IMG/VR virus record: IMGVR_UViG_2734482784_000001
Source: a virus
Lineage: Duplodnaviria; Heunggongvirae; Uroviricota; Caudoviricetes
DNA: 18,381 bases
Reading direction: 5' to 3' (one strand)
The notes beneath the pieces were generated by a model, which was given only the letters and a program-made list of their open reading frames with translations, did not search any database and was not told the origin of the DNA. Below, one piece after another: positions 1,164-18,381 of the stretch (positions are counted from its first letter, which is position 1; the number at the start of each line of letters is the position of its first letter). The translations under genes were made by a program, and so were the position numbers.

Positions 1164-3278
1164 GTGAATTTACAATATCGTCCAGTTCGGATGCCGGCTG
1201 CATTTCTGAAGATAAGGCATTTCGGTTCTCGTATTTTCCCCCTCATGCTCGTCAGTCCTGCGCGTAGTAAGAGACAGGACACTCACACTAATTTGTGTGG
1301 GCATGCTGTGCCTATGGGGGCAGGGAACTCAGTCCCGTGGGATCCGCTGGTGGCACCGTATGTTATTGAGCCTATGAACTGCCTGGCCTCGCGTGAATAC
1401 GACGCAGTGATATTTGTTGGCCCGGCACGAACCGGCAAGACTATCGGCCTGATTGACGGCTGGGTGATTTACAACGTGATTTGCGATCCTGCTGATATGC
1501 TGATCATTCAGATGACGGAGGAAAAAGCCCGCGAACACTCCAAAAAACGACTCGCCAGAACGTTTCGCGTCAGCCCGGAAGTGGTCAGTCGCCTGAGTCC
1601 GAACAAAAATGACAACAACGTTTATGACAGAACATTCCTTGCTGGCAACTACCTGAAAATCGGCTGGCCGTCAGTCAATATCATGTCTTCATCAGATTAT
1701 AAATGCGTGGCGCTGACGGATTATGACCGTTTTCCGGAAGATATTGATGGTGAGGGGGATGCCTTCTCTCTTGCCTCAAAACGTACCACCACATTTATGT
1801 CCAGTGGTATGACGCTGGTGGAGAGTTCCCCCGGCAGGGATGTGAAGGATGTGAAATGGCGACGGACTTCACCGCATGAGGCTCCACCAACCACGGGGAT
1901 CCTGTCGCTCTATAACCGTGGCGATCGCCGTCGCTGGTACTGGCCCTGTCCACACTGTGGTGAGTATTTTCAGCCCTGCGGCGATGTGGTTGCTGGTTTC
2001 CGTGATATTGCCGATCCTGTGCTGGCAAGTGAGGCGGCTTATATTCAGTGTCCTTCCTGTTCAGGACGGATTTTGCCTGAACAAAAACGCGAGCTGAACG
2101 GACGTGGGGTCTGGTTAGCCGCCAGTATCAATATCAAACCGGGCCATGATTATTACTTTTATATCCGCAGTGTGAACACCGTTGGCAAATCGGCATTCGT
2201 GGAGGCTGTTGGTCAGCCGAGTGATGACGCATCCGGCTATCTGGATTTTTTCAAAGGCGAGATAGGGAAAACCCATCTGGCTCAGGAGCTGTGGACGCAG
2301 ATTGATAACGGTCAGCTTGCGCCTGACCTGGCTGAAATCAGGACATCCATTACGGATGTCAGCAATGAAATCACACAGACCGTCAATAAGAAACTGGAAG
2401 ACCAGAGTGCAGCGATCCAGCAGATACAGAAGGTTCAGGTTGATACAAATAATAACCTGAACAGCATGTGGGCCGTGAAACTGCAGCAGATGCAGGACGG
2501 ACGCCTTTATATTGCGGGTATCGGTGCCGGTATTGAGAATACGCCAGCAGGAATGCAGAGTCAGGTGCTGCTGGCGGCAGACAGGATTGCGATGATTAAT
2601 CCTGCGAATGGCAACACAAAGCCGATGTTTGTTGGTCAGGGTGATCAGATATTCATGAACGACGTGTTCCTGAAACGCCTGACGGCTCCCACCATTACCA
2701 GCGGCGGTAATCCTCCTGCATTTTCCCTTACACCGGACGGGCGACTGACGGCGAAAAATGCGGATATCAGTGGCAGTGTGAATGCGAACGCCGGGACGCT
2801 CAACAATGTCACGATAAATGAAAACTGTCGGGTTCTGGGAAAACTGTCTGCGAACCAGATTGAAGGCGATCTCGTTAAAACAGTGGGCAAAGCTTTCCCC
2901 CGGGACTCCCGTGCACCGGAGCGGTGGCCATCAGGGACCATTACCGTCAGGGTTTATGACGATCAGCCGTTTGACCGGCAGATTGTTATTCCCACGGTGG
3001 CGTTTCGTGGCGCTAAACATGAGCGGGAGAATAACGATATTTATTCGTCATGCCGCCTGATAGTGAAGAAAAACGGTGCTGAAATTTATAACCGTACCGC
3101 GCTGGATAATACGCTGGTTTATACAGGTGTTATTGATATGCCTGCTGGTCGCGGTCACATGACGCTGGAGTTTTCGGTATCAGCGTGGCTGGTAAATGAC
3201 TGGTATCCCACAGCCAGTATCAGTGATTTGCTGGTTGTGGTGATGAAGAAATCCACAGCAGGTATCAGTATCAGCTGA
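1164..3278 (+). CDS. chimeric ORF: terminase large subunit (lambda gpA family) N-terminal region fused in frame to a lambda J-like host-specificity protein C-terminal region; deletion derivative
   Basis: Continuous 704-codon frame. Residues about 1-321 carry a Walker A box ([12 protein letters not shown]) and a CPHCG…CPSC zinc-ribbon-like motif as in lambda gpA. Residues from about 322 (nt about 2127) onward, starting near …[28 protein letters not shown] and including …[30 protein letters not shown]…, match the C-terminal third of lambda J as I recall it. The start is uncertain: GTG at 1164 (longest frame) or ATG at 1191, neither with a good ribosome-binding site. Stop TGA at 3276-3278. Confidence 0.7.
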
Positions 3279-8964: not shown

Positions 8965-9198
8965 TTACATTTTACCATTTAAATTTTGGTTGTCTTTAAG
9001 AACTGATATCGCTGTTTGTAATAATTCTTTGTTATCCAGCCATGATTTTTTCTTTATGTTTCCTTCAATGTAATCAAGCAATGTTCTGGTATTGATAGGT
9101 CTTCCCTGTTTTGCTACTTCCACTACAGCATCCCCTAGGATAATTCTTACTTCAGGAAGCTGCGCAGGGAACCACTTTAGGGTGTCTTTTTATTTCAT
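8965..9198 (-). pseudogene. ydfK: ydfK/ynaE-family prophage cold-shock gene with an ochre stop at codon 3
   Basis: The minus strand reads ATG AAA TAA AAA GAC ACC CTA AAG TGG… giving M K * K D T L K W F P A Q L P E V R I I L G D A V V E V A K Q G R P I N T R T L L D Y I E G N I K K K S W L D N K E L L Q T A I S V L K D N Q N L N G K M *. This is a 77-codon YdfK-like frame whose third codon (plus-strand 9190-9192) is TAA. The ORF is absent from the six-frame track because of this stop. Confidence 0.7.
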
Positions 9199-9959
9199 GA
9201 AGATATTCCTTAAAATATTATTGATTTTCATTGCGATATTGTATGTCTGATTCAGGATATGTTGACTTATACATCGGTTTTGTCTGGGTTATTGGATATG
9301 CCAATCCCTAATTTTATTAGGGCATGACTAAAAATGCTGAATATGATAAGGAGAGAAGTGATTATCAGTATGCTGTTCATATAGCCTCGAATTAGTAATG
9401 TGTTATATATGATATAGTTGACAATTTTATCTTGGGTGTTCTTAAAGTTCGTAGATAAACATTGTCGTTTCAGGTATACAGGAATGCTAACAGGTGGCGG
9501 CAAAAATCAGGCGGTTTATGGCGCAATCTGAAGTGGCAACTGCAAACTATCTTATGCAGAGACTCTACACGGATTGGGTTTAAAAGTATACATAGATAAC
9601 AGTTTTTATCTGAAGAAGAAAAATATCAAGGTGATATAGCCTATATGCCTTTGATGTGGAGGAATGAATGTGATGGGAGTGATGTATCTGAATAGTTGAA
9701 AAACCGCAGACACACCTTATGCAAGAACGTGCTGCGGTTGGCTGGTAAATTTTTCGATAGTGCGAGTATTGAATGATTTCCAGCCGTTATTGATTTTACG
9801 CGTAAATCCATGAAAAAACTACTTATCTGTTGGGGAGTTTTTTGGGGCATATATGGGACAGAAATAGGCCCCAGATAGACACTGAGATCGAACTTAGGAT
9901 GCTTTTAAAAAAATGCAACTATCTGAAAAAACCTAGAAAACGCCAAGGAAACCACAGGA

Positions 9960-9990
9960 TGGGAAAAAACACCTGTGAATTATGGATTTC
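9960..9990. other. approximate prophage right-end junction with the chromosome, inside ydfJ
   Basis: The ydfJ frame opens only at ATG 9982; two codons upstream is an in-frame TGA (9976-9978), and the expected N-terminal part of the transporter, including its first helix, is missing. Upstream DNA is AT-rich phage-type sequence. The exact crossover point cannot be set without the other prophage end. Confidence 0.4.
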
Positions 9991-11265
9991 CAGTTATATT
10001 CGCTCGGCGCAGCGTTAGTGTTTCATGAAATATTTTTTCCTGAATCATCAACGGCAATGGCGTTAATTCTGGCAATGGGAACCTACGGTGCAGGTTATGT
10101 GGCGCGTATTGTCGGAGCATTTATTTTCGGCAAAATGGGCGACAGAATAGGGCGTAAAAAAGTGCTCTTTATTACCATCACCATGATGGGGATCTGTACC
10201 ACCTTAATTGGTGTGTTACCGACCTATGCACAGATTGGTGTTTTTGCCCCCATCTTGCTGGTGACGCTGCGTATTATTCAGGGATTGGGTGCAGGTGCGG
10301 AAATTTCCGGTGCCGGTACGATGCTGGCGGAATATGCGCCAAAAGGTAAGCGCGGAATTATCTCCTCATTTGTGGCTATGGGAACTAACTGCGGAACTTT
10401 AAGCGCAACGGCAATCTGGGCCTTTATGTTCTTCATTCTCAGTAAAGAGGAACTGCTGGCGTGGGGATGGCGTATACCGTTCCTGGCGAGCGTTGTCGTG
10501 ATGGTCTTTGCTATCTGGTTGCGTATGAATCTGAAAGAAAGCCCGGTTTTTGAGAAGGTTAACGACAGCAACCAACCGACAGCAAAACCTGCACCTGCTG
10601 GTAGCATGTTCCAGAGCAAATCCTTCTGGCTGGCAACAGGGCTGCGTTTTGGTCAGGCGGGTAACTCAGGTTTAATTCAGACTTTCCTTGCGGGCTATTT
10701 AGTGCAGACGTTATTGTTTAACAAAGCAATTCCAACATATGCATTGATGATCAGTTCGATTCTCGGCTTTATGACCATTCCGTTCCTTGGTTGGTTATCC
10801 GATAAAATTGGTCGCCGGATCCCGTATATTATTATGAATACCTCCGCGATTGTGCTGGCATGGCCAATGCTTTCTATCATCGTAGATAAAAGCTATGCCC
10901 CGAGCACCATTATGGTTGCACTGATTGTGATTCATAACTGTGCGGTGCTGGGATTATTTGCTCTGGAAAATATTACCATGGCAGAAATGTTCGGCTGTAA
11001 AAACCGCTTTACCCGGATGGCTATTTCTAAAGAAATTGGTGGTCTTATCGCTTCCGGTTTTGGTCCTATCCTGGCGGGTATTTTCTGCACCATGACGGAA
11101 TCCTAGTATCCGATCGCCATTATGATCATGGCATATTCAGTGATTGGTTTAATCTCTGCGCTGAAAATGCCAGAAGTGAAAGACCGTGATTTAAGTGCGC
11201 TGGAAGACGCCGCGGAAGATCAACCGCGTGTTGTAAGAGCTGCGCAACCTTCCAGAAGTCTGTAA
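9982..11265 (+). pseudogene. ydfJ: MFS (metabolite:H+ symporter family) transporter gene, 5'-truncated by prophage insertion and interrupted by an in-frame amber codon
   Basis: A 374-codon frame (MDFQLYSLGAALVFHEIFFPESS…GDRIGRKKVL…FCTMTES) stops at TAG 11104-11106. The same frame continues for 52 further sense codons (YPIAIMIMAYSVIGLISALKMPEVKDRDLSALEDAAEDQPRVVRAARPSRSL) to TAA 11263-11265. 374+1+52 = 427 codons, the size I recall for K-12 YdfJ. Confidence 0.8.
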
Positions 11266-11274
11266 ATCCTCAAT

Positions 11275-11305
11275 CCCTTCTCTTACCGGAGAGGGGATTT
11301 TTATT
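11275..11305 (+). terminator. rho-independent terminator after ydfJ
   Basis: CCCTTCTC (11275-11282), loop TTACCG, GAGAGGGG (11289-11296) with one G-U wobble, then ATTTTTATT. Confidence 0.6.
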
Positions 11306-11353: not shown

Positions 11354-12814
11354 ATGGGAAATAATTTGTTATCAGCAAAAGCGACACTCCCTGTTTATGA
11401 TCGTAATAACCTGGCCCCAAGAATTGTTCATTTAGGCTTTGGTGCATTTCACCGTGCGCATCAGGGCGTGTATGCCGATATTCTTGCTACAGAACATTTC
11501 AGTGACTGGGGATATTATGAGGTCAACTTAATCGGCGGCGAACAGCAAATTGCCGATTTACAGCAGCAAGATAATCTTTATACCGTTGCGGAAATGTCGG
11601 CCGATGCGTGGACGGCTCGCGTCGTTGGTGTCGTTAAAAAAGCCTTGCACGTACAGATGGATGGCTTAGAAACCGTGTTGGCTGCGATGTGTGAACCGCA
11701 AATCGCGATTGTCTCTCTGACAATCACCGAAAAAGGGTATTTCCACTCTCCGGCGACCGGACAGTTAATGCTCGATCACCCGATGGTCGCTGCCGACGTG
11801 CAAAATCCCCACCAGCCGAAAACAGCAACAGGGGTGATTGTTGAGGCGCTGGCTCGCCGTAAAGCGGCAGGACTTCCCGCATTTACCGTCATGTCATGTG
11901 ACAACATGCCAGAAAACGGTCATGTTATGCGTGACGTTGTCACTTCCTACGCGCAAGCCGTTGATGTAAAACTGGCACAATGGATCGAAGATAACGTGAC
12001 TTTCCCATCAACAATGGTGGACCGTATTGTGCCCGCAGTGACAGAGGATACGCTGGCGAAAATCGAACAACTTACCGGTGTGCGCGATCCTGCTGGCGTT
12101 GCCTGTGAACCTTTCCGCCAGTGGGTAATAGAAGATAATTTTGTTGCCGGACGTCTGGAATGGGAAAAAGCGGGAGCAGAACTGGTTAGCGATGTACTGC
12201 CTTATGAAGAGATGAAGTTGCGCATGCTCAACGGCAGTCATTCATTCCTGGCGTATTTGGGTTATCTTGCCGGATATCAGCACATTAATGACTGTATGGA
12301 AGATGAACATTATCGTCATGCGGCGTATGGCTTGATGTTGCAGGAACAAGCGCCGACGCTGAAAGTGCAGGGCGTTGATTTGCAGGATTACGCTAACCGA
12401 TTAATTGCACGCTATAGCAACCCGGCGTTACGTCATCGAACCTGGCAGATTGCGATGGATGGCAGCCAGAAATTGCCACAGCGGATGTTGGATTCTGTTC
12501 GCTGGCATCTGACGCATGACAGCAAGTTCGATCTGCTGGCGCTGGGCGTCGCGGGTTGGATGCGTTATGTCGGTGGTGTTGATGAACAGGAAAATCCGAT
12601 AGAAATCAGTGACCCACTGTTACCTGTTATTCAGAAGGCTGTACAAAGTAGTGCCGAAGGGAAAGCGCGCGTCCAGTCATTGCTGGCGATTAAGGCGATC
12701 TTTGGTGATGATTTGCCAGCCAATAGCTTGTTTACTGCAAAAGTGACGGAAGCGTACTTGTCTTTATTAGCGCATGGCGCGAAAGCGACCGTGGCAAAAT
12801 ATTCCGTGAAGTAA
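11354..12814 (+). CDS. ydfI: mannitol-dehydrogenase-family oxidoreductase (long-chain polyol or mannonate dehydrogenase-like), 486 aa
   Basis: AAGGAA then ATG at 11354. N-terminal dinucleotide-binding signature …[18 protein letters not shown]…. Length and synteny match K-12 ydfI. Confidence 0.9.
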
Positions 12815-18163: not shown

Positions 18164-18381
18164 AAATAAATTAGCCTGATGGCCTGAACTACTGGGCCAT
18201 TAGGGTATTGGGTTATGCTATTTGTCATCCTTTTATTTACGATAATGCAGAGGTGATTTACAGAATTAAACACTTTTTTATCCGCTGATTTTGTTTTAAA
18301 TCACAATGTTATCTCAGAGATGACTCATAACTTCGGATTTCTATGAAAATATTGACGTAATTTTGGGTAATGACTCCAACT

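Follow-up and report, generated by a model that had tools for sequence, protein, structure and literature searches.

The locus examined here raises a simple question: why does the frame of a putative transporter gene, ydfJ, run into an amber codon and then continue, in the same frame, as far as its natural end? In the 18,381-nucleotide stretch of DNA that was analysed, called the window below, the residual ydfJ frame opens on the plus strand at the ATG at 9982 and comprises 374 sense codons (9982..11103). It is interrupted by an in-frame plus-strand TAG at 11104-11106, which corresponds to codon 375 of the residual frame (W375*) and to codon 403 in the numbering of the intact 455-codon gene (W403*). 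The orphaned 3' end of the gene (11107..11265, plus strand) holds 52 sense codons (11107-11262) followed by the natural TAA at 11263-11265, and its translation is identical to the C-terminus of K-12 YdfJ. The first-pass annotation had described this interruption and had pointed out that 374+1+52 codons add up to 427, the size that it gave for the K-12 protein; the list of open reading frames and the alignment both agree with the description, and K-12 b1543 is indeed 427 codons long (1284 nt).

Base-for-base alignment with Escherichia coli HS uncovers a single change around the stop, a G>A substitution at 11105 that converts TGG into TAG. Over the 1,284-nt ydfJ frame, 2 of the 1284 bases differ from HS and 17 from K-12 MG1655, and no insertion or deletion was found in this frame against either strain in the same alignment. 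The earlier proposal of a single-base nonsense change, as opposed to a frameshift, is thereby borne out. The second difference from HS, a G>T change at 10738 (GAT>TAT, D253Y in the numbering of the 427-residue protein), looked private when compared with HS and K-12 and turned out to be common to 26 complete genomes that form the wider clade of the window; it is an ordinary lineage polymorphism.

The 374-residue product matches the Pfam domains MFS_1 (E=1.5e-30) and Sugar_tr (E=2.6e-23) over residues 27-350, and its relatives are annotated as 'MHS family MFS transporter YdfJ'. Its membership of the ydfJ orthologues is established by this MFS signature, by near-identity to the HS and K-12 genes and by its position beside ydfI, the first of the downstream genes ydfI-ydfZ-rspR-ydfG-dcp, whose order is that of HS and K-12. 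An intact orthologue has 455 codons; the copy in the window has lost codons 1-28, carries W403* in addition and, judging from its sequence, has become a pseudogene of this putative MHS-family MFS transporter, not a working member of the family. Wichelecki et al. are said to have reported in 2014 that the rsp cluster catabolizes L-gulonate, which would suggest a substrate for YdfJ.

The amber codon is the second lesion of this gene. Homology to the full-length ydfJ of strain PAR starts at ~9976-9981, and this alignment places the junction between the right end of a Qin-type prophage and ydfJ, the first hit, at 9976..9981 on the plus strand. The ATG at 9982 corresponds to Met29 of the intact 455-codon protein, the promoter and codons 1-28 being lost. 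The prophage right end lying upstream carries ynfT, ydfK, pinQ and tail-fibre genes; it abuts ydfJ at codon 29 and aligns with the Qin right end of HS and K-12, the features that define a Qin-type disruption. Prophage-free strains (PAR, 21KM1392, LH09-a and others) display the order rspA-rspB-ydfJ-ydfI and a ydfJ of 455 codons. A consensus scan of the 480 bases upstream of 9982 (9500-9981) detected no sigma-70-like site on the plus strand. In published work, Qin integrates at the 5' end of ydfJ with loss of the promoter and 28 codons, and such integration was encountered in 48% of 638 strains (PMC6379469); in W, K-12, B and Crooks, too, Qin is listed as inserted in ydfJ (PMC3032704). The view that the stop struck a gene already 5'-truncated by the prophage, put forward from the sequence of the window, is confirmed by the start of homology to PAR and by the literature (PMC6379469).

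Directly after the natural ydfJ stop, a consensus scan located a terminator-like hairpin on the plus strand (11272..11299; 12-bp stem and T-run). Since this hairpin stands between ydfJ and ydfI, a polar effect of the amber codon on ydfI was considered and rejected as unlikely to matter. The ydfI gene itself (11354..12814, plus strand) is an intact 486-codon ORF of the mannitol-dehydrogenase family and carries a private P268L replacement at codon 268 (12156 C>T). In close relatives, ydfI is also breaking: PGAP reports an 'internal stop' in strain H2 (L006), and contig L010 (SRR27314567) has a 1-bp deletion near the start of the gene, at the window-equivalent position 11388, with a product of 448 aa. 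On the prophage side, the cold-shock-like gene ydfK (8965-9198, minus strand) contains a private ochre TAA at codon 3 (S3*, TCA>TAA, plus-strand 9191 G>T), a second nonsense mutation of the window that the first-pass annotation had missed. In contig L009 (ERR10441185), which bears the TAG allele, Mn-catalase, two DUF892 and KGG genes take the place of ydfK and pinQ in the left flank, and 15 mismatches and 2 gaps are found in the 210 bases before ydfJ (window-equivalent 9752-9962), which suggests rearrangement or recombination at the prophage end. Elsewhere in the prophage region, none of HS, H2, ES2 and K-12 covers the segment 1311-2110, which is part of an ORF of 704 codons (1164-3278). The counterparts of this ORF in HS are partial terminase and tail-tip pseudogenes, and the segment seems, from its sequence, to be a mosaic junction within the degraded prophage.

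The history of the stop can be read from the other sequences that carry it. The 401 bp around the stop have no 100% match among RefSeq complete genomes, and an exact 28-mer spanning the TAG has 0 matches in metagenome contigs. In a public assembly collection, at least 24 contigs (27 blocks) encode the exact 374-residue product; the NCBI assembly GCA_003291075.1 is among their sources, as are several independent SRA runs. Over 7,125 bp, contig L008 and the window are 100% identical, and L008 also has the 9191 change in ydfK, which is absent from L010-L013, where the TAG coexists with the ancestral G; L013 also keeps the ancestral C at 12156, L010 adds the 1-bp deletion in ydfI, and L011 and L014 have one private SNP each. 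Because TAG-bearing contigs differ at other sites, the TAG predates their later divergence, and it is older than the other private changes of the window; P268L in ydfI is younger than the amber codon since L013 carries the TAG and lacks the T at 12156. Across the whole window, four substitutions are private with respect to the nearest relatives HS, H2 and ES2 (2115, 9191, 11105 and 12156), two of them nonsense (9191 and 11105) and one missense (12156). The TAG is an inherited marker of one clonal E. coli lineage that has since diversified. As for the window itself, positions 1-15 and 18366-18381 are unmatched in related genomes, every megablast match stopping at 16 and 18365. These ends resemble what we take to be the termini of IS2 (AATATAGGGGCAAAT) and IS1 (GGTAATGACTCCAACT), which makes it likely that the window is a whole contig of a short-read assembly, interrupted at IS copies.

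The same stop was sought in 5,426 complete genomes with a query of 55 bases that has the mutated base at its centre, for which the 28-base megablast seed forms only if the genome has an A at this position. TAG at this codon was found in two of them, PAR (CP012379), from a cockatoo in China, and 21KM1392 (CP151067), from a dog in Switzerland, whose ydfJ genes are flagged 'internal stop' by PGAP and are otherwise full-length. Both share one haplotype around the stop, which departs from the window at ~75 positions over 2.8 kb; the nearest differing SNPs (11079 and 11139) flank the stop at distances of 26 bp and 34 bp. Since this haplotype differs at the flanking SNPs, the TAG arose at least twice independently. 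Over the 5,426 genomes, codon 403 is TAG in 2, TGA in 4 and TGG in all others that have the gene. The first-pass annotation had held that other E. coli alleles with a stop at the same position would make it the annotated end of the gene. Such alleles literally exist in PAR and 21KM1392, but they do not make this codon the normal gene end: they are confined to 2 of 5,426 genomes, are annotated with an 'internal stop' and belong to another haplotype. What they reveal is recurrence of the mutation. Nor is the stop conserved among orthologues, as it would be in a case of recoding, codon 403 being a stop in 6 of the 5,426 genomes.

A census of ydfJ nonsense alleles was based on a query in which 55-mers for every possible G:C>A:T nonsense change of the gene, each with that change at its centre, were joined for four haplotype backgrounds; mismatching 3-nt spacers separated the 55-mers, and a local check established that wild-type gives no seed. 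Among the 5,426 complete genomes, 47 matched and ~41 were found to hold true alleles after representatives had been fetched. The matches of GDSC2239PM and 2018-10-2CC were false positives, their fetched ydfJ being intact, and H219 and H220 had 28-nt end matches only. The match of Ecol_AZ147 was rejected as well, as it reflects an IS3 junction and not a nonsense allele: in this genome (L018, CP018995, 1525-2780), IS3 lies in ydfJ at codon 402 with a 3-bp TCC target duplication, directly adjoining Trp403, the codon changed in the window. The alleles recovered are Q128* (TAG, 1 genome), W174* (TAG, 6), W189* (TAG, 1; TGA, 9), W191* (TGA, 3), Q239* (TAG, 1), W244* (TAG, 1; TGA, 3), W299* (TGA, 2), R373* (TGA, 6), W403* (TAG, 2; TGA, 4) and Q450* (TAA, 2). 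In these ~41 genomes, 13 G:C>A:T nonsense alleles were thus observed out of 29 that are possible; they are spread over ~10-11 codons and each is individually rare, at 0.02-0.2% of genomes. Evidently, ydfJ is often lost across E. coli, and in many ways: by integration of a prophage, by insertion of an IS element and by at least 13 nonsense alleles. Truncated members of the YdfJ cluster (368, 375, 398 and 405 aa, among others) were discarded as evidence of nonsense alleles, most being uninformative contig-end partials. In the YdfJ cluster (P0003, P0006, P0012), a product of 368 aa that ends in ...MFGCK is recorded for 210 contigs, and further ones stop at residues 370-375. This may point to a repeat or an IS insertion near codon 368-375 that is common in some lineage.

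The sequence context of the base change bears on its origin. Dcm methylates the inner C of CCWGG on both strands. The ancestral context, taken from HS, K-12, H2 and ES2, is TCCTGGT where the window reads TCCTAGT, and a former Dcm site at 11102..11106 has passed from CCTGG to CCTAG. On the bottom strand, the methylated inner C of CCAGG lies opposite base 11105, and the substitution is a transition at that inner C. The ydfJ frame has three CCWGG sites; among the 139 single-base changes that could create a nonsense codon in it, 26 of which are transitions, only the one at 11105 falls on a methylated Dcm position. The dcm-vsr genes are present in 5,368 of the 5,426 complete E. coli genomes, a frequency that makes a dcm gene likely in the strain of the window itself. 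Deamination of the bottom-strand 5-methylcytosine would have converted CCAGG into CTAGG, that is CCTGG into CCTAG on the coding strand, and a failure of Vsr very-short-patch repair would then have left the G:C>A:T change fixed. Mutation rates at Dcm sites were reportedly addressed by Lee et al. in 2012. CCWGG is a documented G:C>A:T hotspot at the methylated base, which Vsr repair counteracts (PMC13250602, PMC2715241, PMC3527292), Lieb 1991 being cited for the 5-methylcytosine hotspots at Dcm sites (PMC2715241); only a minor fraction of all G:C>A:T transitions occurs at CCWGG sites (PMC13250602). Support for a Dcm hotspot from the recurrence of the mutation was considered and downgraded, almost half of all possible transition-nonsense alleles having been seen in the census. 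Given this near-saturation (13/29), recurrence of the W403* TAG is expected and brings no statistical support to the hotspot. With 2 genomes of one haplotype, the allele at the Dcm site is no commoner than several non-Dcm alleles, among them W189* TGA (9) and R373* (6), and codon 403 was also mutated to TGA, a change that is not at the methylated C. A 5-methylcytosine deamination origin of the 11105 change is plausible from chemistry and context, and on these circumstantial grounds we give it roughly even odds.

Several other explanations of the stop have to be weighed. If the TAG were a sequencing or assembly error of this contig, the true codon would be TGG; the window does resemble a short-read draft contig, and the lack of any RefSeq complete genome identical to it over the 401 bp at the stop could be taken in the same sense. 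The possibility of an error had been raised in the first-pass annotation. For practical purposes it can be dismissed: at least 24 contigs, from independent runs and assemblies and including one NCBI assembly, carry the exact truncated product and diverge from one another elsewhere. We regard an error as scarcely conceivable. Alternatively, the amber codon might be read through, in a strain endowed with a supE/supF-type suppressor or in an engineered or recoded one, and a full-length 427-aa product would be made. The open frame of 52 codons after the TAG would suit this idea and is equally expected for a recent nonsense mutation. The engineered background, another suggestion of the first-pass annotation, is not supported, and the presence of the allele in many ordinary isolates from several independent sequencing projects argues against it. 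Furthermore, the nearest relatives HS, H2 and ES2 are commensal or environmental strains, phylogroup-A-like and not K-12 derivatives, the window differing from K-12 at 17 ydfJ positions; the ochre stop in ydfK is beyond rescue by an amber suppressor; and the product would still be deprived of promoter and N-terminus. We give read-through next to no credence.

The stop could also be a natural alternative end of ydfJ, leading to a shorter but functional 11-helix isoform and possibly to a TM12 peptide re-initiated at the ATG at 11122. Codon 402/403 has been hit repeatedly, with at least four independent events (the TAG of the window lineage, the TAG of PAR and 21KM1392, the TGA of the LH09-a lineage and the IS3 of Ecol_AZ147 at codon 402), and a 47-codon ORF begins 16 nt past the stop. 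However, the few genomes with a stop at codon 403 (6/5,426) are all annotated as pseudogenes at this locus, nonsense alleles are spread over many ydfJ codons and the clustering at codon 403 is not significant (p ~0.1-0.3 by a rough binomial estimate). No Shine-Dalgarno-like sequence precedes the ATG at 11122 and the gene of the window has neither promoter nor N-terminus, and we judge such an isoform extremely improbable. That codon 402/403 is a genuine recurrent break point, either as a Dcm-driven hotspot or through selection removing TM12 and the tail, is quite unlikely. Lastly, the loss of YdfJ might be positively selected, the nonsense allele having risen since inactivation was beneficial. 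The high frequency of Qin integration (48% of 638 strains; PMC6379469), the 13 transition-nonsense alleles, the IS3 insertion and the many truncated cluster members could all be invoked in favour of selection. In the window lineage, however, the gene was already beheaded and a second knockout would offer selection nothing more to act on, while the individual rarity of the alleles is what drift under weak constraint would be expected to produce; positive selection is, in our opinion, very unlikely.

The reading that we favour, with a probability of about 0.88, is that of an ordinary second hit in the neutral decay of a prophage-truncated pseudogene. Integration of a Qin-type lambdoid prophage at Met29 removed the promoter and the first 28 codons, and a G:C>A:T transition at 11105 later turned the Trp codon TGG into an amber codon in the beheaded ydfJ. 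In a hydropathy scan of the full-length sequence, the last hydrophobic segment covers residues 403-425 and is followed by a 30-residue tail. By reference to the 12-helix architecture of MFS proteins, this segment is presumably TM12, and the stop would remove the last predicted transmembrane helix together with the C-terminal tail. As the gene was in all likelihood dead before the amber codon appeared, the stop most likely had no further phenotypic effect and would have been fixed by drift in one clonal lineage. With no promoter, no N-terminus and W403*, the ydfJ remnant is almost certainly non-functional. In K-12, the truncated ydfJ has been reported to be differentially expressed on DicC induction, and this residual expression leaves formal room for a functional truncated product. 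On every point examined, the description of the locus in the first-pass annotation and its main interpretation are supported.

A nonsense mutation in a gene already inactivated by a prophage carries little biological weight, and its interest lies elsewhere. For annotation purposes, the 374-codon ORF is a pseudogene fragment and not the 'sugar phosphate permease' that appears in some submissions. The TAG, ydfK S3* and ydfI P268L provide a convenient marker of one clonal E. coli lineage, and the repeated inactivation of ydfJ across E. coli is consistent with weak selection on this transporter. On a small scale, the locus also illustrates in nature how a transition at the inner C of CCWGG creates an amber codon, a type of mutation known from classical genetics.

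The feature of the window is best seen as the ordinary decay of a dead gene by a second hit on a pseudogene, and several systems can be set beside it. K-12 b1543 occupies the same locus, with the prophage junction at Met29, a 427-codon remnant and the downstream neighbours ydfI-ydfZ-rspR-ydfG-dcp; unlike the window, it keeps TGG at codon 375, and it shows 16 other differences (15 synonymous and the D253Y site). Unlike K-12, the window has the extra amber stop and is placed in an HS-like lineage of phylogroup A. PAR and 21KM1392 share the identical TGG>TAG change at the same codon and differ by a ydfJ of 455 codons, free of prophage, preceded by rspA-rspB and of another haplotype. The two-hit pattern of prophage truncation and internal stop recurs at other codons in four alleles from five genomes, 23CRST009 (Q128*), SF4-1 (W191*), CAU16175 (Q239*) and FDN-11 and GPEC1240 (W299*). 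In these five, as in the window, a G:C>A:T nonsense change follows truncation, and PGAP notes 'internal stop; missing N-terminus' for them; in contrast to the window, other codons are affected and none is in a Dcm context. Finally, Coulondre and Miller are said to have described in 1978 amber hotspots of lacI arising by CCAGG>CTAGG. There as here, a transition at the inner C of CCWGG creates TAG, with the same chemistry. The lacI hotspots are CAG>TAG changes, whereas the site in the window is read from the opposite strand, TGG>TAG; and whereas the former were demonstrated by mutation frequencies in controlled genetics, the latter is a single historical event whose proposed origin is deduced from its context.
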